From positions 1-50,263 of IMG/VR virus record IMGVR_UViG_3300045988_133551: a DNA stretch of 50,263 bases; one strand, given 5' to 3'. This document shows positions 9,733 through 22,052 of the stretch, piece by piece (within the stretch, counting starts at the first letter, position 1; every line of letters begins with the position of its first letter). Source of the stretch: a virus. A model generated the notes under the pieces. That model ran no database searches. It worked only from the letters and a program-made list of their open reading frames with translations, and was not told the DNA's origin. A program made the position numbers and the translations under genes.

Positions 9733-10959
9733 GTGAAATATGATGTGACCAAGGGCGGATACATACTGCTCGGCAGGTGCGGCGAGAATCTCGCGCGGAC
9801 AGTCGAGATCGACATATCCGAATATCTCGTGGAGTATCCCGGTGCGGTGGTGACGCTGCTGCACCGGCGGCATGGCGAGAGCGGCATCTATCCCGTGGCG
9901 GCGGAGCTGCGGGACGGATGTCTCGTCTGGCAGCCCACCAGTGCGGACACGGCCATTGTGGGCGACGGCGAGGCAGAGGTGCGCGTTACGGTGGACGGTG
10001 TGCTGGCCAAGTCCAAAATCCTCTCTACTATGGTGGACAAGAGCCTGACGGGGCAGGAAACGGACGTGCCCGAGGCGAGCAAGGGCTGGGTGGACGCGGT
10101 TATCAGCGCCGTCGGCAATGTGCAGAACATGAAGGCCGAGGCCGAGAGCGTGGCGTATGGCGAACCGGCAACGGCGGAATACGATGGCAAAACAGGGACG
10201 ATGCGCTTTGGCATACCCGAAGGCAGGCCGGGCAGGGACGGCACGGATGGTAAGGACGGAGCCGCTGGGGCTAAGGGCGATAAGGGTGATCCGGGAGAAA
10301 AAGGTGAAACTGGATCGCCGGGGCCTCAGGGGGAACAAGGGCCGAAGGGTGATCCCGGAGTACAGGGGCCGAAGGGCGAGCCGGGCAACAATGCAAACGT
10401 CACGGCGGCGAATATCGAAACAGCTCTTGGGTACGCACCGGTAACGCCGTCTGCTCTGGCTACAAAGCAGGACGCTCTGACCGACGCGGACAAGCAGTCG
10501 ATCACCAAGACCGGCATGACGACCGGTGCGGCGTGGACGAGTGCCGAGCAGAAGGCGGCACGGGAGAGGATGGGCGTTGACAAAGCATATGAACTGATCG
10601 AGGAAATTACGCTGGAAGAATCCATGGCTTATGCAAGAACAAACGTCAAATACAAAAAAATAATGTTATATATTCATTCGCCATCAAGCCAGCAAGCAAC
10701 TATGCTGACCTCCTACATTGGCTCGGACACTGGTAGTAAGATTTATTCTGGGCTTAATATTTCGTCTAATACAGTTTACAAAATGGAAGCATCTGCTCAA
10801 AACGGACACATTGTTGCGATCAATTCATTGACCAAAACATTCGGACGCAACGCGGCGTATGGCGCTACTGTGCCTGACGGATGTAGCTATATCAATGAAA
10901 TTACACTATCGGTAATGGAAGCTGCAACAAAAATCGTTATTTATGCTGTCCGCGCTTAA
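9733..10959 (+). CDS. Tail fibre / receptor-binding protein with collagen-like stalk
   Basis: GTG start after AGGAGG. Has a BppU-like N-terminus, 18 G-X-Y triplets and a low-GC C-terminal domain. Confidence 0.85.
10222..10386 (+). repeat. Collagen-like G-X-Y repeat region (coding)
   Basis: [55 protein letters not shown]. Confidence 0.9.
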
Positions 10960-11922: not shown

Positions 11923-12915
11923 ATGGCAACGGTAAGAGTAGGAAGCGCGAGAATCGACGAGCGGGGCAAGGCCTACGGAGGCAAGGCGGGCGACCAGACC
12001 GGGCGCGAGCTGAGCACGCAGAAGTGGTATCTGCACAAAAAGGGCTGGCGGGTGTTCCGCGCCAAGGATCGCGCGGCGGCGCTGAGGATCGCCGCGGACA
12101 TGGAGGCGGCGTGCAAGAACAGCCACATCGGCTACGACCAGTGGCAGCGCAACACGCTGTACAAGGTGGCCGAGCCGCTGGGCTTCGACTGCGGAAAGGT
12201 CAGAACGGACTGCGAGACGGACTGCTCTGCGTTGGTGCGCGTGTGCTGCGCCTATGCGGGCATTATGGGTCTGCCGAGCGATTTCCGCACCGGCAATATG
12301 CCGAAAAATCTGCTGGCGACGGGCGCATTTGTGGAATTGCGCGGCGCGAAGTACACCGACCAGAGCGCGTACCTCGGCAAGGGCGACATCCTCGTGACCA
12401 AGACCAACGGCCACACGGTGGTGGTGCTGGACGACGGCGCGAAGTACGAGGGCGCGGTGGAGGCCAGGGAGTACGCGCTGGGCGAGCGGCTGCTGAAGCA
12501 CGGCGCGGAGGGCGCGGACGTGAAGCAGCTCCAGCAGTACCTCATCCAGCTGGGCTACGATCTGGGCAAGTGGGGCGCGGACGGCGAGTTCGGCGACGCC
12601 ACAGAGTTTGCGGTGAGGGCGTTTCAGGGGGATCACAAGCTCGGCATGGACGGCCAGTACGGCCCCAAGAGCCATGCGGCCATGCTGGAGGCGCTAGAAG
12701 CGGACGAGCCGGAGGCGGAGCATCGCTATGTGGCCATCGAGGGCGGCAATTGCTACGTGCGCACCGCGCCCAACACCGACGGCAAAATCCTCGGCGTTGC
12801 CCATCGGGGCGACGTGCTCCCCTATGGCGGCGAGAAGGCCGACAACGGCTGGCTGCTGGTTGCCTTTGAAAACCAGAACGCCTGGGTGTCCGGCAAATAC
12901 GGCAAGCTGAAATAA
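11923..12915 (+). CDS. Endolysin: Cys-His peptidoglycan hydrolase + PG_binding_1 + SH3 domains
   Basis: DCSALV and GHTVVV suggest a papain-like catalytic pair. GADVKQLQQYLIQLGY...DGEFG is the PG-binding repeat. The C-terminus is SH3-like (YVRTAPNTDGKILG...GWLLV). Confidence 0.85.
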   Translation: MATVRVGSARIDERGKAYGGKAGDQTGRELSTQKWYLHKKGWRVFRAKDRAAALRIAADMEAACKNSHIGYDQWQRNTLYKVAEPLGFDCGKVRTDCETDCSALVRVCCAYAGIMGLPSDFRTGNMPKNLLATGAFVELRGAKYTDQSAYLGKGDILVTKTNGHTVVVLDDGAKYEGAVEAREYALGERLLKHGAEGADVKQLQQYLIQLGYDLGKWGADGEFGDATEFAVRAFQGDHKLGMDGQYGPKSHAAMLEALEADEPEAEHRYVAIEGGNCYVRTAPNTDGKILGVAHRGDVLPYGGEKADNGWLLVAFENQNAWVSGKYGKLK

Positions 12916-12936: not shown

Positions 12937-13284
12937 ATGAACGACGAAAACCATCTGAATGCAATTGGAGAGGAACTCGCGGCGCTGAAGGCCAGCAATG
13001 AGTCCGATCATAAGAGCTACCAGCGCCGCCTCAATGCGCTGGAGGACGCGCAGCACCAACAGACGCGGATGCTGCTGGACATCCAAAACATCTCCAACGC
13101 CCAGCAGAATATCCTGTCCACTATCAACAGCATCGACGGCAAGGTGGACAAGCTGGGCAAGCGCATCGACGTGATCGAGAAGGAGCCGGGCGACAAATGG
13201 AAAAAGCTGGCCTTTGAGATCGTCAAATACGTCGTGCTGGCCGCCGTCGGCGTGGCGGTAGGCTACATCATCAAAGGGGTATAA
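12937..13284 (+). CDS. XhlA-like lysis-associated protein (coiled coil + C-terminal TM anchor)
   Basis: Coiled-coil N-terminus with a C-terminal helix LAFEIVKYVVLAAVGVAVGYII, located between the endolysin and the holin. Confidence 0.7.
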   Translation: MNDENHLNAIGEELAALKASNESDHKSYQRRLNALEDAQHQQTRMLLDIQNISNAQQNILSTINSIDGKVDKLGKRIDVIEKEPGDKWKKLAFEIVKYVVLAAVGVAVGYIIKGV

Positions 13285-13302
13285 CGAGAAAGGAGAAAAA
13301 CA

Positions 13303-13662
13303 ATGAACATCAATCTGACCCCCATCATACAGGCGATCATCGCGCTGCTTGCGGCGCTGATCACCTACAAGCTGATCCCGTGGATCAAGGCGCGGACGAC
13401 CAACGAGCAGCAGGCGCTACTCAAAGCGACCATCAAGACGATGGTCTTTGCCGCCGAACAGCTCTACGGAGCCAAAAGCGGCTCCGAGAAACTGGACTGG
13501 GTGATCTACCAGCTCAGTCAGCGCGGCTACAGCGTGGATCGAAGCGAAATTGAAGCAATTATTAAAGAAAACATGGATGCCCTGCACACTTACTCCCCCA
13601 GCGAGACGAAGGCACGGGAGGAGGAAACCGAAGCCGAGGACGAAAAGCCTCCCGAGGAATAA
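13303..13662 (+). CDS. Holin (LL-H / holin superfamily 6-like)
   Basis: N-terminal TM helix IIQAIIALLAALITYKLIPWI, then GSEKLDWVIYQLSQRGYSVD..IEAIIKENM, then an acidic tail. Confidence 0.75.
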   Translation: MNINLTPIIQAIIALLAALITYKLIPWIKARTTNEQQALLKATIKTMVFAAEQLYGAKSGSEKLDWVIYQLSQRGYSVDRSEIEAIIKENMDALHTYSPSETKAREEETEAEDEKPPEE

Positions 13663-13680: not shown

Positions 13681-13929
13681 ATGATGAAATACGACGAGTA
13701 CCCGCAGTTTGACGGCGTGACCTCGTCGGTGATGTCGCGCCTCATCATCGAGGCGCGGCTCGCGCCGTCAGATGTGCATATCGCCGCATCACGCCTCGTC
13801 TGGGGTATGGACTATGCGGACATCGCCGCGGCGGTGGGCATGGACAGGAGCGCCGTTTCCAAGCGCCTGCGCGGGCAGATCGTCCCGCGCATCGAGCTGG
13901 TGATGCAGGCGGTGGACAAGTGTATGTAG
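13681..13929 (+). CDS. Small sigma-70 region-4-like HTH protein
   Basis: DYADIAAAVGMDRSAVSKRLRG is an HTH motif. SD GGGAGG. Confidence 0.65.
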   Translation: MMKYDEYPQFDGVTSSVMSRLIIEARLAPSDVHIAASRLVWGMDYADIAAAVGMDRSAVSKRLRGQIVPRIELVMQAVDKCM

Positions 13930-13936
13930 GCTTTCA

Positions 13937-13966
13937 GGCCGGTGGAGCAATCCACCGGCCTTTTTT
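13937..13966 (+). terminator. Rho-independent terminator (end of tail/lysis operon)
   Basis: ggccggtgga-gcaa-tccaccggcc, a perfect 10-bp stem, followed by tttttt. Confidence 0.9.
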
Positions 13967-14012
13967 CTTTTGGCTTTTTTGCAAAAAAGTTTGGAAAACC
14001 CCGTGAAAAGGC

Positions 14013-14041
14013 TTGACAATATATCAAAAATGATATATAAT
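14013..14041 (+). promoter_or_regulatory. Exact consensus sigma-70/sigA promoter (TTGACA-17-TATAAT)
   Basis: ttgaca at 14013..14018, a 17-nt spacer, and tataat at 14036..14041. Confidence 0.8.
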
Positions 14042-14107
14042 ATAGTCGCAAGGTTGAGGGAAGCAAGAGCGACCGGCGGCAGAGCCGCAGAAAGTGGAGG
14101 AAATACA

Positions 14108-14629
14108 ATGGCAATGGCAAGCGTGAAACTCATCTGCAAAAAGTGCGGCAACGAGTTTACTTGGCGGAGAAACTGCTACAACCGCCGGGACGCGGATAAC
14201 AGTGAAAGCTGGGCTCGTGAGAATGTTACCCTCTGCCCCGAATGCGCAGCGGAAGTGCGTCGCGAAGCGGAAGCCGCCAAGCAGGCCGAGGCCGTCAAGG
14301 GCCTGTCTGTGGAGCTGCCCGAGAACCTCACCGGCAGCGAAAAGCAGATCGCCTGGGCGAAGGACATCCGCGAGAAGTACGCGCTGATGATCCAGCGCGA
14401 ATACGTCAACGAGGCCGACGACGACCTCCGCGTCTACTACGTCAAGGTGCTCGACGTAATCATCGCCGAAAACCCCAGCGCCAAGTGGTGGATTGACCAC
14501 CGCGACGAGCTGAAGGACATCACCTCCGGCGGCCAGATGTATGTCGACCGCATGGATAAGTGGGTGGCCGAGTATCAGGTCAGCGATCCCGAGGGCTATG
14601 CCAAGATGATGGAGATCGCCAACAGCTAA
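14108..14629 (+). CDS. Hypothetical zinc-ribbon protein (accessory cassette 1, gene 1)
   Basis: ATG lies after GGAGGAAATACA. Contains CKKCG...CPEC, then LTGSEKQIAWAKDIREKY. I cannot name a family. Confidence 0.7.
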   Translation: MAMASVKLICKKCGNEFTWRRNCYNRRDADNSESWARENVTLCPECAAEVRREAEAAKQAEAVKGLSVELPENLTGSEKQIAWAKDIREKYALMIQREYVNEADDDLRVYYVKVLDVIIAENPSAKWWIDHRDELKDITSGGQMYVDRMDKWVAEYQVSDPEGYAKMMEIANS

Positions 14630-14681: not shown

Positions 14682-15161
14682 ATGGACATCAACATCGAAC
14701 TCCACGAGAAGACCTACCAGAACGGCGATGTGCCGGATCACAGCATCCTGACGTTGGACATCTACCACCACAAGGACATCCTCAACGGGCTCAAGATCTG
14801 CGCGGGGGAATTTGGCATCGACGAAGTTTTAAAGCTCGGGAATGGCGGTCTGAAAGAAGTCGAATTTGACATTCCAAGTAATAAGGGAAGCGTCCTCGCG
14901 AAAATAAGGTACGGCGAAGCCCTCCAGCTGACAGAATTTGGCCGCGCGTCTCTTAAACGGGAAATCCGCTTTTATCCTCCGCTGATCGATCTGGACGGCG
15001 AAATTTACGCCGTACTGAAAGAAGGGCTCCACTTGGTGCTCAAATGCCCAGGAATCATATGGCATGACGGCGAGTGGTGCGTCCCGCGCGATAATCTTAA
15101 GTATCACGACGGGGGCATGTGGAGCGATACTGTATTTGCGGACATGGCGGATACACACTGA
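14682..15161 (+). CDS. Hypothetical protein (accessory cassette 1, gene 2)
   Basis: 159-aa ORF with SD GGGGGAAGGGGG. GC is lower than the flanking regions. Confidence 0.65.
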   Translation: MDINIELHEKTYQNGDVPDHSILTLDIYHHKDILNGLKICAGEFGIDEVLKLGNGGLKEVEFDIPSNKGSVLAKIRYGEALQLTEFGRASLKREIRFYPPLIDLDGEIYAVLKEGLHLVLKCPGIIWHDGEWCVPRDNLKYHDGGMWSDTVFADMADTH

Positions 15162-15222: not shown

Positions 15223-16251
15223 ATGCGATTACCTGAATTTTTTGCAAAAAACATCCTTAATCGCCATCCCAAAGCAGTTGAAATCATCGCACGCCTTGAG
15301 GACTGCCGCCTGGCGCTTGAAGCTGACGGTGAATGGCCAAGCTGGTGCGCATTGCCGATGGCCGTGACCTACACTGCACTTGCAGCGGAACTGGGCGTGG
15401 AGCGCCTTGACATCGACACAATCCACGATCTTGCGCCGCTGACCGCTGCGTGGATATGGTCAAAGACCAAGCAGCTATTTGCATTTGACGAAACGCTGCT
15501 TGCAGAGCTGATGGAGCAGCCGTTTGATGGGGCGATCCCGAGCGACGCGCTGAAACGCCTACCCGTGCCCTGCGTATACGTAGATAACATGCTTGGGATG
15601 GGGAAGGATTGCGCAAAAGGATTTTTTGCATGGATCGAGTATGACAATGCCAACCAATGGGCAGAACTGCGTCTGCTAATTTTGCTGAAGGAGAATTACG
15701 CGGAATCCTATGTTTGCCCATTGCGCGGAACCATCGGTGAATCGCTGGAAGCGTTGTATGAGGCGGGTCAGAAATCGGCAGATGCGGAAATGCTCCCACT
15801 GATTGAAAAGGCAGGCGACAATCTCGAAGCCATAGCGGGAATGATCGCAAAAATCCTAAACGTGCTCCTCTATCTGTGCGCAGAGGAGCCAGAATACACA
15901 ACACAACCCCGAAGATACAGCAGGACACCGTCGGGATTTACCGCTGAGCACCCGCCGAGGAAAACCGCCGTAACGGTGGTAGGAGAACGGATTGGCGCTA
16001 CAATCAGGGCAGGGCGCAGGTCATATGCATCTAGATCAGGAGAAAACAGCGGAAGGACGCATGCGTCACCGGTGCCGCATATCCGCCGGGCGCACTGGCA
16101 TCACTATTGGACAGGTGCATACGATTCGGCGGATCGACGACTGGTGCTCAAATGGACACCGCCGGTGTTTGTCGGAAACGATGCGCCAGTCACAACAATA
16201 CGGCCAGTAAAAGGAGCAAAAAATGAGGACAGACCCACGGGAAAACCATAA
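15223..16251 (+). CDS. Hypothetical protein with a basic C-terminal HIRRAHWHHYWTG motif (accessory cassette 1, gene 3)
   Basis: 342-aa ORF. I do not recognise the family. Confidence 0.65.
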   Translation: MRLPEFFAKNILNRHPKAVEIIARLEDCRLALEADGEWPSWCALPMAVTYTALAAELGVERLDIDTIHDLAPLTAAWIWSKTKQLFAFDETLLAELMEQPFDGAIPSDALKRLPVPCVYVDNMLGMGKDCAKGFFAWIEYDNANQWAELRLLILLKENYAESYVCPLRGTIGESLEALYEAGQKSADAEMLPLIEKAGDNLEAIAGMIAKILNVLLYLCAEEPEYTTQPRRYSRTPSGFTAEHPPRKTAVTVVGERIGATIRAGRRSYASRSGENSGRTHASPVPHIRRAHWHHYWTGAYDSADRRLVLKWTPPVFVGNDAPVTTIRPVKGAKNEDRPTGKP

Positions 16252-16444
16252 TACCAGCCATAGCCCCATTGCCCAGCGCCGTATCGCACTGGGCATGACC
16301 CAGAAGCAACTCGCCGAGGTGATCGGGACGACACAGGCGATGATTGCGCGATGGGAAGCGGCAAAACACGCGCCTAATGGGACGACGCTAATGAAATTGT
16401 CTAATGCGTTGAATTGCACAATAGACGAATTGATGGAAAACTGA
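16223..16444 (+). CDS. XRE-family HTH regulator (accessory cassette 1, gene 4)
   Basis: SD AAGGAG. IAQRRIALGMTQKQLAEVIGTTQAMIARWE is a classic XRE HTH. Overlaps the previous gene by 29 nt. Confidence 0.8.
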   Translation: MRTDPRENHNTSHSPIAQRRIALGMTQKQLAEVIGTTQAMIARWEAAKHAPNGTTLMKLSNALNCTIDELMEN

Positions 16445-16448
16445 CCGC

Positions 16449-16493
16449 AATACCGGCAAACCCGCAATGGGGGGTGCCGGTATTTTCATTTTT
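16449..16493 (+). terminator. Rho-independent terminator
   Basis: aataccggca...tgccggtatt 10-bp stem followed by a T-rich tract. Confidence 0.75.
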
Positions 16494-16694
16494 GACCGCA
16501 TTTTCCGCAAGTGTACTTTATTTTTTGATATATCTCATGTTTTGTCTTAAGTTATCCCAAGTTAGTTTTAAGTTTTTTGCGACTACTCATTAGTTACTCT
16601 TCACTTTTTTTGATTTTTCCCACAAACCCCGCATAACTTCCCGCGCCGCATCGCTACCTGTGCGAAAATGACCTCAGAAAGCGAGGTGCAACGC

Positions 16695-17105
16695 ATGGCT
16701 TATAACTACCCATTCCCCCAGCCCGCTGTGCCGGGATATTTCAACGCCAACTACATGCCCCCTCAGCCCCAGATGATGCAGATGACGCAACAGCTGCAGC
16801 CGCAAATGCAGCCGCAGAATAATCCCATGCTGCTGTCCGTCCCCGACGAGCTGACGGCGCGCAACGCGCAGTTTCCGATGGACGGCAGTCCGGCGTATTT
16901 TATCAACGCCAATGGGCAGGAGATTTACTCCAAGCAGTTGTCAATGGCCAACGGCTCCGTGATTTTCCGCCGCTTCCGGCGGGAGGAAGAAGCGAAGCCC
17001 GAAGCGCCGGCATATGTCACACACGATGAGATGAACGCGAAGCTCAGCGAGCTGTATCAGCTCATCGGCGACGCGACCTCTCCGGCGGGAGGTGAAGCAA
17101 AATGA
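16695..17105 (+). CDS. Q/P/M-rich hypothetical protein (accessory cassette 2, gene 1)
   Basis: ATG lies 7 nt after GAGGTG. The N-terminus is low-complexity: MAYNYPFPQPAVPGYFNANYMPPQPQMMQMTQQLQPQMQPQNNP. Confidence 0.65.
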   Translation: MAYNYPFPQPAVPGYFNANYMPPQPQMMQMTQQLQPQMQPQNNPMLLSVPDELTARNAQFPMDGSPAYFINANGQEIYSKQLSMANGSVIFRRFRREEEAKPEAPAYVTHDEMNAKLSELYQLIGDATSPAGGEAK

Positions 17106-17326
17106 TGAATCTGATGGGTCTGATGCAGATGATGCAGGGCGGCGGAAACCCCATGCAGCTCGCCCAGATGTTCGCGAGCCAGAATCCACAGGCGGCTCCG
17201 GCGATGCAGATGATCCAGGGCAAATCGCCCGATCAGCTCAAAGAGGTGTTTTACAACCTCTGCAAATCCAAGGGCCTCAACCCGCAGGACATTGCGCGCC
17301 AGTGCGGCGTGACGCTTCCGCAGTGA
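17102..17326 (+). CDS. M/Q-rich small hypothetical protein (accessory cassette 2, gene 2)
   Basis: ATGA overlap with the previous gene. Sequence begins MMNLMGLMQMMQGGGNPMQLAQMF... Confidence 0.6.
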   Translation: MMNLMGLMQMMQGGGNPMQLAQMFASQNPQAAPAMQMIQGKSPDQLKEVFYNLCKSKGLNPQDIARQCGVTLPQ

Positions 17327-17385
17327 TAAGATTTCGCCCTTGCGATCGGAGGGCGAGAAAAAATAAATGAAAGGGGAACACAATT

Positions 17386-18090
17386 ATGGACAATGAAATG
17401 ACGGCCTTTCTGGCCGGTCAGAACTCCACGGATCGGAATAACTGCTATGATGGCATGGGCTTCGGCGGTGGCTGGTTTATCTGGATCATCCTGATCTTTG
17501 CCATCTTCATGGGCAACGGTTTCGGCGGCTGGGGCAACAACGGCGCGCTTCAGGGTGCGCTCACCCGCGGCGAGATGGCCGACGGTTTTAACACCGCCGA
17601 AATCCTCCGCAACCAGAACGGCCTGATGCGTGACCAGTTTGGCGTGCAGCGCGACGTGCTGGAGAATCGATACAACACCCAGCTCGGCTTGGCCGGCATT
17701 GACAAGTCGATCATGGAAAATCGGTTTGCCGCCCAGCAGTGTTGCTGCGAGACTCAGAAGGAAATCATGCAGAACCGCTACGACGCGGCCCTGCAGGCTC
17801 AGGCCATGCAGGCCCAGCAGGCGCAGTGCTGCTGCGACGTGAAGACGGCGATCCACGCGGAGGGCGAGGCCACCCGCGCGCTCATCAACGCCAACACAAT
17901 GCAGGAGCTGCGCGACAACCTGCAGGCGGCCCAGCTCCAGCTCGGCACGCTGTCGCAGACCAACACGCTGCTCTCGGCCATCAACAAGACCCCTGTGCCG
18001 GCGTATCTGACGTGCAGCCCGTATCAGTCGGGCTACAACCCCTACGCCACGCAGGGCTGCGGAAGCTGCGGAGCCGGTTACGTCGCGTAA
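17386..18090 (+). CDS. Membrane-anchored coiled-coil protein with CCC clusters (accessory cassette 2, gene 3)
   Basis: GMGFGGGWFIWIILIFAIFMGNGFGGWG is a Gly-rich TM segment reminiscent of YjcZ-type sporulation peptides. There are two CCC triplets and a C-terminal CGSCG. Confidence 0.7.
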   Translation: MDNEMTAFLAGQNSTDRNNCYDGMGFGGGWFIWIILIFAIFMGNGFGGWGNNGALQGALTRGEMADGFNTAEILRNQNGLMRDQFGVQRDVLENRYNTQLGLAGIDKSIMENRFAAQQCCCETQKEIMQNRYDAALQAQAMQAQQAQCCCDVKTAIHAEGEATRALINANTMQELRDNLQAAQLQLGTLSQTNTLLSAINKTPVPAYLTCSPYQSGYNPYATQGCGSCGAGYVA

Positions 18091-18176
18091 CCAACTGACA
18101 TACGCGTTATAACAGCGCCTGCGCCCGTCCGAGCCATGCGCCGGGCGGGCGTTATGAATTGGAAAGGAGAAACGAT

Positions 18177-18611
18177 ATGTCCTGCAATTGCAAAAACATC
18201 CACCAAAAGTCTGCGCAGGCCGCATACAACGCCGCTTTGCAGACCTACACCGCCGATGGGACGACCATCAACGTGCTCGGCACCCAGATCACCGACACCG
18301 GCTGCTCCATCACCACCCAGAGCGGCGGCTTCCGCATCAACGCCGGCGGCCTGTTCCGCGTCAGCTATGACGTGACCAGCACTCCCGGTGCGGCAGGCGC
18401 TCAGGTGCTCCAGCTCTACAACGGCTCCACGCCCATGCCCTGCGCGATGACCACGGATACCGTGGCAGCAGGAGGCGAAATCACCCAGCACGTGGAGACG
18501 GTGGTGCGGCTGGCCACCTGCTGCGCGATCCAGCCCGTCATCAGCGCGCGTCTGAGCGGTGCTGCCGGAACGGTCAGCCACGTATGCGCCAGCGCGGTCA
18601 AGCTGGCCTAA
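18177..18611 (+). CDS. Putative beta-sandwich/jelly-roll protein with an N-terminal CxC motif (accessory cassette 2, gene 4)
   Basis: ATG lies 7 nt after AAGGAG and the protein starts MSCNCKN. GGFRINAGGLFRVSYDVTS...VLQLYNGS...ETVVRL resembles BclA-C1q-like or Ena-like folds (by eye only). Confidence 0.65.
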   Translation: MSCNCKNIHQKSAQAAYNAALQTYTADGTTINVLGTQITDTGCSITTQSGGFRINAGGLFRVSYDVTSTPGAAGAQVLQLYNGSTPMPCAMTTDTVAAGGEITQHVETVVRLATCCAIQPVISARLSGAAGTVSHVCASAVKLA

Positions 18612-18623
18612 GGAGGCGCGGAT

Positions 18624-18944
18624 ATGAAGATCATCAAGCGCCTGAGCAACGACATCGCCGGCAACATCGAGGAGGCCCGCGGCAAAATCCGCACGGCCTA
18701 CGACCTCAAGGCGGAGCATCCCGAGGCCGCCGCGTGGTATCGCGAGATGGCCGCGGCCCACATCAATTTCAACACTAACGGTCACGCCGTTGTGAAGAAG
18801 CTGATCGATGGCTACAAGGCCTCAGAGGAGTACAAGCGCAACCCCGCCTACGCCGACGGCATGATCGCCGCGTGGGAAGCCATCCACAACGACCTCATCG
18901 CCAAGACCGCAGAGGTCAAGGCGATGATCGATGGGTGGAAATGA
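18624..18944 (+). CDS. Hypothetical helical protein (accessory cassette 2, gene 5)
   Basis: 106-aa ORF with SD AAGGAGG. Confidence 0.65.
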   Translation: MKIIKRLSNDIAGNIEEARGKIRTAYDLKAEHPEAAAWYREMAAAHINFNTNGHAVVKKLIDGYKASEEYKRNPAYADGMIAAWEAIHNDLIAKTAEVKAMIDGWK

Positions 18945-18948
18945 ATTA

Positions 18949-18977
18949 TGGGTGGGGCATAATCCCCACCCATTTTT
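18949..18977 (+). terminator. Rho-independent terminator
   Basis: tgggtgggg-cataat-ccccaccca, a perfect 9-bp stem, followed by ttttt. Confidence 0.85.
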
Positions 18978-19016
18978 CCACCCGTTTTGGTTCCGGATGC
19001 GTTTTTGCCATGTACG

Positions 19017-19052
19017 GTATAGCCATATTTTGCGGGCAAAATATGGCTATAC
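19017..19052. repeat. Perfect 17-bp inverted repeat (2-nt spacer) in the attP region
   Basis: gtatagccatattttgc gg gcaaaatatggctatac. Confidence 0.9.
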
Positions 19053-19083
19053 TTATAGCAAGGTGCACTATATTTGATAAATG

Positions 19084-19113
19084 GGGCGGGTTCAAGTCCC
19101 GTCGACCGCACCA
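19084..19113 (+). other. Putative attP core: 3' portion of a tRNA gene (T-arm + acceptor + CCA)
   Basis: gggcgggttcaagtcccgtcgaccgcacca contains GGTTCAAGTCC (T-loop) and ends in CCA. The matching 5' acceptor strand is absent upstream. The integrase gene is adjacent. Confidence 0.65.
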
Positions 19114-19116
19114 GCG

Positions 19117-19160
19117 AAACCACCGAGAAACAGGGACTTTCTCGGTGGTTTATTTTTTTC
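19117..19160. terminator. Strong hairpin terminator overlapping the integrase stop
   Basis: aaaccaccgagaaa-cagggac-tttctcggtggttt, a 14-bp stem, followed by attttttt. Confidence 0.8.
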
Positions 19161-20283
19161 TTCCACCCACTTTTCCACCCACTTGCGGCAAAAAGCGAGA
19201 AAACGCGTCATCAACAATATTTGCCGCGCGCACCATATCGCCGTTGACGGCGTGCCCATATACGCCGGACGTATCCATATCTTCGCTGTGTCCGATCATT
19301 GATTTCAGCAGCGGCAGGGGAACGTCGTTTTGAACGACTGAGACGAACGTATGCCGTAATTCGTGCAGGCTGCATCCGAGGTCGTGCTGATTGCGGAAGG
19401 TGTCCCACATGGAGTACAGATGGGAGCTGTTCAGCATCTCGCCGTGCTCGTCCGGAAAAACCCACGGAGAAATGATCGACATCCAGATCAGCATTTCGCG
19501 CTGCGCGTCCAGCTCCACTTTCGCCGCGTCGGATAATGCAAATGACCTGCGCGCGTTATCGTTTTTTCCGGCTGTGATTTCCTGCTGCGCATTAACGCTC
19601 CGCTTGATCGTCACTACGCCGTCGACAATGTCCTCGTTTCTCAGGCCACACAATTCCCCACGGCGCAAGCCGGTTAGAACGAGGAAACGCCACGCGTGAA
19701 TGAAAAAAGAGCGCTCTATGTGGCCCCAATGTATGATCGTATCCTCTGTAAACAGTGTCTTCAGCGCAACGGGTTGTAGGATTTTCCGATTTGCCTCCGG
19801 CGCGTCCTTGGTAATGGGCAGATCGCCGCGCTCAAGCAATTCGATTTCCCAGCGCTCACGCCGGGCAAAATTGACAAATGCGGAAATCGACAGCTTGATA
19901 TTCTGCAATGATCGCCGCGACAATCCGTTTCTTTGTCCGGCGTCTATGCAGGCGCGCCACATGTTCGGCGTTATCTTAGACAGCCGCGTGTTTCCCAACT
20001 CCGGCAGCAGATATATGCGCCCCAGGTATTCGTGCTTTTTCCAGTTCGCCGTTCCGGTGCGCTGCTTCTGGTCCTCCAGAAACAGCGCCCACGCCGCATC
20101 AAAGCGCATCTCTGTCGTTCCCTTTTCCAGCCATTCGTCTGCTTTGCCCTCAGCCTCGTGTTTGCCCTTGCGGCCCTTGATGGACGACGTAAACGCCTTG
20201 CGCTTTCCGTCGAGCTGCACTTTAACCTGCCAATAGCCCTTAGACTCTATCCAGATGGCTTCGGCATGCCGTTTCACGGTCAT
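19150..20283 (-). CDS. int: Tyrosine recombinase / phage integrase
   Basis: LTGLRRGEL (Arg), HELRHTF (H-x-x-R) and GVYGH (Tyr) motifs. 377 aa, next to the tRNA-like att core. Confidence 0.92.
   Translation of the reverse strand: MTVKRHAEAIWIESKGYWQVKVQLDGKRKAFTSSIKGRKGKHEAEGKADEWLEKGTTEMRFDAAWALFLEDQKQRTGTANWKKHEYLGRIYLLPELGNTRLSKITPNMWRACIDAGQRNGLSRRSLQNIKLSISAFVNFARRERWEIELLERGDLPITKDAPEANRKILQPVALKTLFTEDTIIHWGHIERSFFIHAWRFLVLTGLRRGELCGLRNEDIVDGVVTIKRSVNAQQEITAGKNDNARRSFALSDAAKVELDAQREMLIWMSIISPWVFPDEHGEMLNSSHLYSMWDTFRNQHDLGCSLHELRHTFVSVVQNDVPLPLLKSMIGHSEDMDTSGVYGHAVNGDMVRAANIVDDAFSRFLPQVGGKVGGRKK
19161..19184. repeat. Tandem 12-mer ttccacccactt x2 (possible arm-type site; also encodes GGKVGGK at the Int C-terminus)
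   Basis: Exact tandem copies. A related motif, ttccacccgtttt, occurs at 18977..18989 on the other side of the core. Confidence 0.6.
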
Positions 20284-20307: not shown

Positions 20308-20616
20308 TTAATCCAAAAATGTGCAGAATCCAATCGCCCGCGGCGATCCATACTTTGCCACAAAGTCATCGTCGCCCATCCGACGGATGCAGACATAGTG
20401 CGTATTCGGCCAGGCGATGCGATCATCGGGGCCGAGGTCGTCGCTGATGGAGATGTCATCCACCGAAAACGCGTCGCCGCGGAAACCGAGATCATGGTGC
20501 AGCTTATTATAAGCCTCCGTAATCCCTACCTTCAGATCGTCAATAGTACGATATTCGCGTATGGTCTTCATTGCTTCGTCGAGAGTGCCCCGATGGTCGC
20601 GATACAAAATCTTCAT
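20308..20616 (-). CDS. Hypothetical protein translationally coupled to the DUF4041/T5orf172 gene
   Basis: 4-nt start/stop overlap with the upstream gene. 102 aa. I do not recognise the family. Confidence 0.65.
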   Translation of the reverse strand: MKILYRDHRGTLDEAMKTIREYRTIDDLKVGITEAYNKLHHDLGFRGDAFSVDDISISDDLGPDDRIAWPNTHYVCIRRMGDDDFVAKYGSPRAIGFCTFLD

Positions 20617-22052
20617 GCCAATTCCTCCTCATACTCATCGTTTCTGCTTTGACTTGCCATAGAGAGACTCTGCCTGTATTGTTCTGCCAACGCTGTTTCG
20701 CGGAATGACGCGGTTGGGTCAATCCGTTCCACAAGTTCCCGCAGCTCCCTCACGTCGACGTTGAAAAACTCTTTCCGCGGGTTGATCTTATTCACACGCT
20801 GAGAATCCAACTCCTTATGCAGCATGTTTTCCAGCCCCACTGCGTCCTCGCTGAAAATAAAGCTGTGAACGTCAAACGGGAACGGCACCGACGCGCTTCC
20901 GAGTTCGTCCACGCGCTCCTGCGGCTCCAGGCGCCGCGTCATGCCGATCTTAAATACGTTGTCGCCAAACGCGCCAATATTGCTGATGATATACACCGTG
21001 CCGGCTTTGCCGTTTTGCAGATTGACGATTTCGGCCTTCTTCTCTTCGACCTTGCTCATCAGCCCATTCATCTCATCGAGCCGCCGCTGCAGGGCCGCCA
21101 GCTCCTCGTCGTGCGCCCTGTTCATCTCGGCCACGATTCGGTCGATCTCCTGCTGATACTTCTTTTCCTCGGCCTCGACGCGCTTCTTCTCGGCTTCGAG
21201 CTGCTTGCGCTCTTCGGCCTCCTGCCGCATCTGCTCTTTGATGGCGCGCTGCTCTTCCTTGGCCTGCTCGCGCTTGACGTAGTATTCATACTCGATATCT
21301 ACGGCCTTGAGATACAGGCTTTCGATCTGGGCGATAAACCGCCTCAACGTGGGCGCAATCGTCTGATTGCCGTCTATCGCGATGGTGTAGTACTTGCTCG
21401 TCAACGTGCGAATATCCGCAATTGCCTTGTCCAGCGTGCCGAAGCGCAGCGTATACAGCACGTTTTCCAGCTCCGCCTCAAGGCCAAGCACCATCAGCCG
21501 ATACAGCGCGCGGATTGTCTTTGTCTCGTAATTGGATTCATACGCCTTGCAGACGGCGATGATCTGCTTCCGCGTCTCGCGATACTTCGCGGCAAGCGTC
21601 TTAACCGTCAGGCAGTTCAAGTCCTTCTCGGGCAAAAGCTCCTCCAAGTCATTGATTTCCGAGACGCTCTCTCCGCGAGCCGTCGCTTCCAGCGCGGCGT
21701 TGATGCTCTGCGCCAGATATTTGAGCTTTTCCGTCCGCGATATCGCCGTGGTGAGCTTGCTTTGCGCGGCGGCGTTCTCCATTGCAAGCGCGTCACGCCG
21801 TGCGGTCAGATCACGCAGCTCGTTCTGGCAATCCGCGCTCTTTCGCTCAAGCTCTTTGGTCTGGCGTTCCAGCGCCTGATAGGCCTCCGTCCGGGCCTGA
21901 CGCATCGCCTCCTGCAGCAGTGCGTCACTCTGCTTCGCCCGTGCCTCGGCCTTATCCGCAGCCTCAGTGTATTCGCAGATTTTGCATAACCCGCTCTCCT
22001 TGCTAACGCGGACAAACAGCCCGTGCCGCCCGCATTTTACGCATTTTCCCAC
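20613..22052 (-). CDS. Zinc-ribbon + coiled-coil (DUF4041-like) + T5orf172/MUG113 (GIY-YIG-like) domain protein
   Basis: N-terminal CVKCG...CKIC, a long coiled coil, and a C-terminal GTVYIISNIGAFGDNVFKIGMTRRLEPQERVDELGSASVPFPFDVH...EFF. Confidence 0.8.
   Translation of the reverse strand: MGKCVKCGRHGLFVRVSKESGLCKICEYTEAADKAEARAKQSDALLQEAMRQARTEAYQALERQTKELERKSADCQNELRDLTARRDALAMENAAAQSKLTTAISRTEKLKYLAQSINAALEATARGESVSEINDLEELLPEKDLNCLTVKTLAAKYRETRKQIIAVCKAYESNYETKTIRALYRLMVLGLEAELENVLYTLRFGTLDKAIADIRTLTSKYYTIAIDGNQTIAPTLRRFIAQIESLYLKAVDIEYEYYVKREQAKEEQRAIKEQMRQEAEERKQLEAEKKRVEAEEKKYQQEIDRIVAEMNRAHDEELAALQRRLDEMNGLMSKVEEKKAEIVNLQNGKAGTVYIISNIGAFGDNVFKIGMTRRLEPQERVDELGSASVPFPFDVHSFIFSEDAVGLENMLHKELDSQRVNKINPRKEFFNVDVRELRELVERIDPTASFRETALAEQYRQSLSMASQSRNDEYEEELA

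Follow-up and report, generated by a model that had tools for sequence, protein, structure and literature searches.

A conserved gene module in phages of gut Firmicutes with a predicted membrane stalk protein and a C1q-like jelly-roll protein

The virus record IMGVR_UViG_3300045988_133551 of IMG/VR (50,263 nt, analysed over its whole length and called the window below) carries five small genes, P1 to P5, between its lysis genes and its attP/integrase region, and the question raised by this locus is what such a cassette does for the phage. A preliminary description, made from the sequence of the window, had placed the unit at 16494-18977 and proposed a conversion module for disulfide-cross-linked fibres on the cell surface or the spore. 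We read the cassette as the effector section of a self-regulated, mobile module that has at least six genes and is found in tailed phages of gut Firmicutes. The function that we favour, with a probability of roughly 0.35, is that of a very-late, activator-dependent module which makes a membrane-anchored coiled-coil stalk and a C1q-like partner and works at the cell envelope, either at lysis or after it.

Loci carrying the module were fetched by a homology scan, which gave 107 loci: 27 from species-representative genomes and 80 from IMG/VR, the latter being the best 80 matches among at least 575 contigs that encode a relative of P3. Further loci came from the contexts of individual proteins and from Clostridium perfringens phages. 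Neighbouring genes were classed with locally built hidden Markov models (HMMs), and loci were counted as distinct by their P3 sequence, resulting in 70 distinct loci. The collinear core P1-P2-P3-P4, or the same core with the alternative protein P4b in the P4 slot, was observed in 53 of these 70. The gene order was P1-P2-P3-P4-P5b in 27 loci and P1-P2-P3-P4-P5 in 16; nothing was classed after P1-P2-P3-P4 in 5, and P4b followed the core instead of P4 in another 5. A fifth gene, helical or ferritin-like, was present in 46 of the 53 collinear loci, and most of the remaining 17 loci were interrupted by contig ends. As other phage loci encode homologues of all five proteins, and do so in the same order, the five open reading frames (ORFs) are, judged from sequence comparison, real genes with an order conserved beyond chance, and the genes proposed as a unit do co-occur in other genomes. 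A nucleotide search of the phage collection gave two short matches only. The P3 family, whose members are of constant size, falls into 5729 clusters at 90% identity and into 825 at 50%. From these cluster and contig counts, the module belongs among the commoner unassigned multi-gene blocks in phages of human and animal gut Firmicutes.

The module is mobile and occupies two genomic placements. It stands after lysin/holin genes in 23/70 loci, with an integrase adjoining in 5 of these 23, as in the window, and in 28/70 loci it has a MuF-like minor head gene on one side and the scaffold and major capsid genes on the other. The recorded hosts include Oscillospiraceae, Faecivicinus, Anaerofustis, Erysipelotrichaceae, and C. 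perfringens, together with the diderm Negativicutes Phascolarctobacterium, Megasphaera, and Veillonella, which are non-sporulating genera. The Phascolarctobacterium and Megasphaera prophages lie on 545-kb and 205-kb chromosomal contigs, where host genes directly follow the module. The Veillonella carrier is a contig of a metagenome-assembled genome (MAG), and the host names of MAG contigs may be wrong where the contig is short. In C. perfringens phage PMQ04, which has no integrase annotation, the P1-P2-P3 core is followed by a P4b-type protein. The core genes are carried by the culturable C. perfringens phages 17DYC and PMQ04 and their relatives, and the module is therefore directly testable.

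P4 (18177-18611, + strand; 144 aa, starting with MSCNCKN and holding 7 Cys) is predicted to be a stand-alone C1q/TNF/BclA_C-like jelly roll. The AlphaFold2 (AF2) monomer model showed a predicted local distance difference test (pLDDT) value of 92.9 and a predicted template modelling score (pTM) of 0.85, and its jelly roll starts at about residue 13. The best Foldseek matches in the PDB were ExsF/BxpB/ExsFA (9h3d_E, 8d02, and 7r1m_A; TM-scores of 0.69-0.72) and the BclA C-terminal domain, with E-values of about 1e-7. Foldseek gave a probability of 1.00 and TM-scores of 0.65-0.75 to the BclA C-terminal domain, ExsFA, EDA-A1, and C1q-like proteins; the matches next in line were EDA-A1 (TMq up to 0.75), C1q-like proteins, PRD1 P5, and knobs of phage fibres or needles. 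In Pfam, BclA_C reached 21.2 bits (E = 2.7e-4), under its cut-off of 38 bits, and other family members scored 21-25 bits. The P4 family profile matched BclA (E = 4.5e-4) and cerebellin (E = 7.6e-5) in the PDB. P4 is therefore a remote relative and not a curated member of that family. From the predicted structure we are confident that P4 is a C1q/TNF-type jelly roll, as the preliminary description had suspected. The sequence and profile matches of P4 against the PDB did not include ExsFA/BxpB, with which P4 shares 14-16% identity; across the ExsFA/BxpB-BclA proteins the identity was 14-17%. In the viral structure library, the close relatives of P4 come from gut phage contigs and are uncharacterised, although some carry the automatic name 'BclA protein'.

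The alternative idea of an endospore appendage (Ena) subunit did not stand. No Pfam match to DUF3992 (Ena) at E <= 1 was obtained for P4 or P4b, and Ena structures were absent from the 50 best Foldseek matches listed for P4. We found no collagen-like GXX repeats, no exosporium leader, and no Pfam Collagen match in P4. An N-terminal Cys connector had also been proposed; MSCNC is indeed present in the window, but Cys within the first 8 residues was observed in only 16/68 distinct P4 proteins, and this feature belongs to the lineage of the window only and not to the P4 family. P4b, the 'MSCQYC...' protein of C. perfringens phages, is Cys-rich and beta-rich, is unrelated to P4, and can occupy the P4 position. 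It was considered as a divergent P4 and as an Ena protein, and both were rejected (hhalign negative, no Pfam match, and PDB matches only at E >= 0.26).

P3 (17386-18090, + strand; 234 aa) matched phrog_16490, a family with no assigned function, with E = 6e-20. The protein consists of an acidic N-tail, a Gly-flanked transmembrane helix, a long helix with two CCC clusters and the motif AIHAEGEATR, the motif PxPAYxTCSPY, and a Cys-rich tail; it contains GFGGGWFIWIILIFAIFMGNGFGGWG, two CCC triplets, and a terminal GCGSCG. In the AF2 model, the transmembrane segment (residues 30-41) is followed by a Gly-rich linker, one continuous helix at residues 70-199 (about 130 residues), and a disordered Cys-rich tail. 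The block-mean pLDDT was >90 at about residues 131-190. Family statistics were calculated over the 220 members that passed a filter on length and hydrophobic segment. A hydrophobic segment at about residue 25 was present in 220/220 of them, with a mean Kyte-Doolittle value of 2.4 over 15 residues, and the N-tail was net acidic in all. A CCC triplet was found in 95% and at least 2 Cys within the last 25 residues in 90%. Homologues that are longer differ only by extra repeat units, each of about 11 residues. Across the family, AIHAEGEATR and PxPAYxTCSPY hardly vary, and the H and E of the former are invariant. For the long helix, heptad and hendecad periodicity gave no clean register. Foldseek with the AF2 model found no structural relatives of P3, and the profile search against the PDB found none that was significant. 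The model points to P3 as the one firmly membrane-associated product of the module, with the shape of a Cys-clustered stalk. The transmembrane segment, long helix, and Cys clusters had been recognised correctly in the preliminary description, but the likeness to YjcZ-type sporulation peptides (TIGR01732) was lost, as P3 showed no NCBIfam or Pfam match at E <= 1 and, at 234 aa, is no tiny peptide.

The expression of the cassette is probably governed from outside it. A small helix-turn-helix (HTH) protein of 82 aa, assigned with a locally built HTH family, is encoded at 13681-13929 (+ strand) as the last gene of the lysis operon, 2.7 kb upstream of P1 in the window. The cassette is a self-contained unit with terminators on both sides, but this probable regulator gene lies beyond the region first described. 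A small HTH gene was present upstream of P1 in 88/101 loci, usually at <500 nt and otherwise at 1.4-2.9 kb with variable genes between. Other members of the HTH family matched Pfam GerE/LuxR (E = 7.6e-9) and Sigma70_r4 (E = 1.7e-6); the copy in the window matched weakly (HTH_31, E = 4e-4; Sigma70_r4_2, E = 0.01). Its gene starts 18 nt past a holin-type gene, and a strong terminator follows it at 13936-13961. Its sequence and position make the HTH protein the module's probable regulator. A transmembrane protein with a single pass and a coiled coil (XhlA-type or similar) is encoded upstream of the HTH gene in every lineage examined, immediately so in most, and this holds also where the module sits among head genes. 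At one such locus, L055 (4849-6883; also in L054 and L067), a Phage_holin_5_2-like gene stands between the portal and MuF-like genes, and a coiled-coil protein of about 120 aa with an N-terminal transmembrane segment is encoded between the MuF-like gene and the HTH gene of the module. These phages therefore have membrane genes of the lysis type mixed in with their head genes.

No sigma70-type promoter for the cassette was found on the + strand. Just upstream of P1 there is a conserved direct-repeat element, TTCCCACAAA-N11-TTCCCGCG, at 16617-16645 (+ strand). Its core pattern occurs once in the window, compared with 0.06 occurrences expected by chance, and still once when 3 mismatches are allowed. 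Across 116 loci it matched only just upstream of P1, in L007, L038, L039, L041, L042, and L043, a test that is partly circular because the pattern was derived from the very loci then counted. The flanks of the loci that share the element otherwise differ. The element is a candidate activator site or promoter, and we infer a cascade that leads from the late operon to the HTH protein and from this to P1-P5.

In the mechanism that we favour, a small HTH protein of sigma70-region-4/LuxR type would be expressed from the last gene of the late/lysis operon and would activate the P1-P5 operon through the direct-repeat element, so that P1-P5 would be expressed very late in the lytic cycle and not constitutively in the lysogen. 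P3 would enter the cytoplasmic membrane by its Gly-flanked transmembrane helix and form an oligomeric helical stalk of about 19 nm, which the Cys clusters might stabilise as disulfide knots or as metal sites. P4, presumably a trimer, would be the exchangeable binding part paired with this stalk. P1 and P2, which are Met/Gln-rich and partly disordered, may act as helpers or chaperones, and P5 (helical or ferritin-like) may be an accessory subunit. The complex would work at the envelope at or after lysis, and its candidate roles are receptor masking on debris and sister cells, giving progeny protection and superinfection exclusion, or an aid to release. If the module does work in this way on the envelope, or on particles, at or after lysis, this would be an extra step of the lytic cycle in Gram-positive phages that is missing from current models, and it would be a concrete tie between phage and exosporium proteins. 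A bolder version is possible but improbable in our view: the very-late programme would build an exosporium-like layer of Cys-cross-linked, membrane-anchored stalks and C1q/BclA-like trimers on the membrane remnants of the dying cell or on released particles, where it would shield the progeny by acting as a decoy or mask for receptors or as a matrix of occlusion type, and would share ancestry with ExsFA/BxpB and the BclA C-terminal domain of Bacillus/Clostridium.

Several observations weigh against an action at the envelope. Both flanks of the transmembrane segment of P3 are acidic, and the topology of P3 is therefore not settled by the flanking charges. P3 alone among the module proteins has a signal peptide or transmembrane segment. 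As P1, P2, P4, and P5 carry no export signal, a P3-P4 complex would form in the cytoplasm or only after lysis. The placement of 28 of the 70 loci in the head cluster fits a virion component equally. Searches of Pfam, PHROGs, NCBIfam, and PADLOC tied no component to a known family for exclusion, lysis, or defence, and the IMG/VR sample is dominated by a few human-gut phage clades.

The main rival explanation follows from some of these points. The module could encode a virion fibre or decoration, in which P3 is a Cys-knotted coiled-coil shaft, P4 or P4b forms the knob at the distal end of a fibre on the head or tail, and P1 and P2 are assembly chaperones. A position in the head-gene cluster (28/70 loci) agrees with this, and soluble parts without export signals are what cytoplasmic assembly would need. 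C1q/TNF-like knobs occur on PRD1 P5, cyanophage fibres, and the Sf6 needle knob, a variable number of shaft repeats with an exchangeable tip is typical of fibres, and the module is found whatever the lifestyle of the phage. However, the strongly hydrophobic, transmembrane-like segment that P3 always has is unusual for a fibre, and the module brings its own regulator, terminators, and upstream element and changes its genome position. The ferritin-like fifth gene is hard to fit into a fibre, and the collagen-like fibre protein of the window itself is dissimilar to P4. We regard a virion part as rather unlikely. A membrane-tethered assembly in the cytoplasm is more doubtful still. It would be a metal/redox complex or a condensate-type scaffold for replication or assembly, formed from the Cys clusters together with P1/P2, which are Met-rich, and the ferritin-like protein in the fifth position. 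Such an assembly has no precedent and leaves the C1q-like head and the variable-length stalk unexplained, but it agrees with the lack of export signals on P1, P2, P4, and P5, and the acidic N-tail of P3 fits an N-out/C-in orientation. The CCC clusters, the invariant H and E of AIHAEGEATR, and the Met-rich P2 could bind metal, and low-complexity regions are present in P1 and P2. P5b is a probable ferritin homologue over its full length (E = 1.1e-5); its ferroxidase His is not conserved, however, and the P5 of the window is weakly ferritin-like.

The reading with which this locus was first described, a moron for lysogenic conversion whose prophage-expressed, disulfide-cross-linked, exosporium- or Ena-like fibres would stand on the cell surface or the spore, is very unlikely. 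The cassette does adjoin attP with terminators on both sides, P4 is structurally nearest to ExsF/BxpB and BclA, the HTH architecture of the regulator is of GerE/LuxR type, and P3 and P4 are Cys-rich. Cys-bearing N-terminal connectors are, moreover, known on C1q-tipped collagen-like proteins and on Ena subunits (PMC12357932). The misfit of the spore-fibre and conversion claims comes from host range, PMQ04, head-cluster placement, and promoter evidence. A spore or exosporium role is at odds with the module in Phascolarctobacterium and Megasphaera prophages and on the Veillonella MAG contig. Conversion as a general role does not agree with PMQ04, which has no annotated integrase, with the 28/70 head-cluster loci, or with a cassette that no sigma70-type promoter precedes and whose regulator gene is part of the late operon. 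Matches to Ena/DUF3992 and YjcZ are absent, the N-terminal Cys is confined to 16/68 P4 proteins, and P4 has neither a collagen stalk nor an exosporium leader. The module is not spore-specific and is probably not a lysogenic-conversion unit.

The likeness of the favoured envelope-acting stalk and head to known systems is partial in each case. In the ExsFA/BxpB-BclA anchoring of the exosporium in the Bacillus cereus group (PDB 9h3d, 8d02, 7r1m, and 1wck), a stand-alone TNF/C1q jelly roll is found as in P4 (about 145 aa), and P4 resembles the ExsFA/BxpB anchor, a stand-alone TNF-like protein of about 150-170 aa. There, the terminal peptide of a partner docks on the jelly-roll trimer, as described for ExsF (PDB 9h3d; PMC12357932), and the P3 tail and P4 may pair in a similar manner. 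Cys-rich partners occur in the exosporium system too. In contrast to that system, the module is phage-borne and occurs also in non-sporulating hosts, and P1, P2, and P3 have no exosporium counterparts. Viral fibre knobs (PRD1 P5, the fibres of cyanophages A-1(L) and A4, and the needle knobs of Sf6 and HS1) have the fold of P4 and are phage-encoded, probably trimeric binding heads. They are C-terminal domains of long fibre proteins in a tail or vertex module, whereas P4 is separate and small, in its own cassette and beside a transmembrane protein. TNF-superfamily type II ligands such as EDA-A1 (PDB 1rj7) follow a similar logic with an N-terminal transmembrane anchor, an extended stalk, and a TNF-homology trimer, but the stalk of the module (P3, alpha-helical and not collagenous) and its head (P4, without export signal) are separate polypeptides. 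We take this as a resemblance of design, with homology not demonstrated.

The i-spanin Rz and XhlA-type lysis accessories have, like P3, an N-terminal transmembrane segment and a coiled coil with conserved Cys, and P3 is encoded beside holin/endolysin genes in many loci. They differ in that no HMM similarity was found and P3 is longer, accompanied by four other proteins, and without a lipoprotein partner; spanins are also not needed in monoderm hosts, where the module occurs too. The S- and L-ENA appendages (DUF3992) consist of small jelly-roll-type subunits with cross-linking N-terminal Cys motifs (PMC12357932), which the MSCNC start of P4 in the window recalls, but the DUF3992 match is absent and most members of the P4 family have no N-terminal Cys. 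Phage morons are, like the module, terminator-flanked, with their own upstream control element and varied positions. The module differs in being much larger and far more conserved, in occurring in a phage without annotated integrase, and in its probable dependence on a late activator. To our knowledge, no phage system combines a small dedicated regulator of sigma-region-4 type, a helical, Cys-knotted membrane stalk whose length varies, a C1q/TNF-like head that can be exchanged, Met/Gln-rich helpers, and a ferritin-like subunit. A description of the module was not found in the literature on the carrier phages, BclA in phages, F-ENA, DUF7841, and BclA_C. The module is new in the sense that it matches no described system, which is not the same as a demonstrated new mechanism.

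The remaining products of the cassette gave fewer matches. P1 (16695-17105, + strand; 136 aa) holds the first position of the module and matched phrog_21718, which has no assigned function (E = 7e-8). Its start at 16695 is backed by a ribosome-binding site, and the upstream ATG at 16668 is not. P1 contains PFPQPAVPGYFNANYMPPQPQMMQMTQQLQPQMQPQNNP, and the family alignment shows a low-complexity N-terminus rich in Q, P, M, N, and Y, then about 50 aa of conserved domain, and a helix at the C-terminus. The profile search found no relative of P1 in the PDB. P2 (17102-17326, + strand; 74 aa), whose ATG overlaps the stop codon of P1, has 10 Met and 12 Gln with repeats of the NPxxxMQQM type, and its C-terminal part is small and helical in the family alignment. 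In Pfam, P2 gave HTH matches below threshold only. P2 may also resemble the Met-rich STI1/DP repeats of eukaryotes, a likeness without Pfam support that is a lead only. P5 (18624-18944, + strand; 106 aa) is helical by the family alignment and takes the fifth position, where other loci have the ferritin-like P5b or a DUF7841 protein. P5 matched the N-terminal helices of ferritin weakly (E = 0.09-0.4). P5b matched ferritin 1z4a with E = 1.1e-5 over its full length (17-183 against 13-160), and the ferroxidase His residues are not conserved in the P5b alignment. Homology of P5 and P5b was tried with hhalign and rejected. A faint PADLOC match of P5 to PDC-S67 (E = 0.007) was observed, with no PADLOC matches for the other four proteins. 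In all, scans of P1-P5 against Pfam, PHROGs, NCBIfam, and PADLOC gave only the P1 and P3 PHROGs without assigned function, the sub-threshold BclA_C match of P4, and this faint P5 match, and no holin, spanin, or XhlA match was found for P1-P5 in Pfam or PHROGs.

The genome in the window, that of a temperate tailed phage, is circularly permuted and has 58.2% GC. The five ORFs of the cassette lie on the + strand, each with a good Shine-Dalgarno sequence ahead of it, and are tightly packed between two terminator hairpins, adjoining attP and the integrase. The cassette, the sequences quoted from it, its AT-rich leader, and both terminators were all present as first described, and so was the location between lysis genes and attP/int. 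Upstream are an ELLD-type endolysin (11923-12915) and two single-pass transmembrane proteins of XhlA/holin type (12937-13662), and the integrase downstream is of the tyrosine type (19150-20283, - strand). Each of the two terminators folds into a GC-rich hairpin with a U-run after it. The upstream one (16449-16484, with its U-run to 16496, + strand) showed a folding energy of −24.4 kcal/mol (z = −2.95) and ends an inserted unit, and the one at the end of the cassette (18948-18973, with its U-run to 18980, + strand) showed −22.4 kcal/mol (z = −3.9). The leader (16497-16694, + strand) has 28.7% GC at 16497-16618, compared with 58.2% for the whole window. Two further GC-rich hairpins lie between genes on the + strand, at 17332-17358 between P2 and P3 (−15.5 kcal/mol, z = −3.1) and at 18121-18152 between P3 and P4, where the 91-nt intergenic region folds with −31.5 kcal/mol (z = −2.3). 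These may be internal attenuators or RNA-stability elements that set the product ratios.

The attP region (18966-19180) combines direct repeats, a palindrome, and a tRNA/tmRNA-like 3' fragment. The direct repeats CCACCCAYTTTTCCACCC lie at 18966-18983 and 19163-19180 with a spacing of 197 nt, and a perfect 17-nt palindrome is located at 19017-19052. The fragment at about 19087-19101 gave a short match to the 3' end of tmRNA (E = 0.18), and ARAGORN found no complete tRNA. Integration of the phage into the 3' end of a tRNA or tmRNA gene is likely from these elements; an alignment at the prophage junction of L001 gave no decisive attB core. Next to the integrase, a 479-aa protein (20613-22052, - strand) matched the PD-Lambda-1 defence model in PADLOC with E = 3.7e-83; this homologue carries T5orf172/MUG113 domains and is a prophage-borne defence gene. 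The tail genes of the window extend to about 10.96 kb, and their region includes a 408-aa fibre protein with collagen GXY repeats (9733-10959; Pfam Collagen, E = 9e-11). The possibility that P4 is a copy of the tip of this fibre was rejected, as there was no detectable similarity between the two.

The unit inserted between the HTH gene and P1 (14013-16496) is unrelated to the module and ends at the 16449 terminator. It starts with a perfect sigma70 consensus promoter (12/12; TTGACA-17-TATAAT, 14013-14041) and encodes a Zn-ribbon-like protein (ORF 13970-14629, probably starting near 14105), two proteins of 159 aa (14682-15161) and 342 aa (15223-16251), and an Xre-type HTH protein whose gene (16223-16444) overlaps the one before it. 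The first three proteins had no PADLOC match and no significant Pfam match, and the Xre-type protein matched HTH_3. The closest relative of the window, L037, has different genes at this place, which is therefore a site where insertions vary. As candidate cargo expressed from the prophage, the unit could be, for example, a toxin-antitoxin or defence system.

Two observations were made in other carriers. An extra small protein of about 60-70 aa with the motif ...LDLLxLFGxxLxxxNY..., absent from the window, is often encoded beside the P4 position, either between P3 and P4 (7807-8001 in L004 and 8633-8848 in L055) or just after P4 or P4b (8180-8356 in L012 and 6841-7038 in L005), and it may be an optional seventh component of the module. 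The carrier L004 (Logan contig SRR5786437_1996) also encodes DNA polymerase A and an SNF2 helicase, and its queuosine/archaeosine-type genes (GTP cyclohydrolase I, QueF-like, PTPS, and radical SAM) converge on the module; the module is therefore also present in phages that probably have modified DNA.

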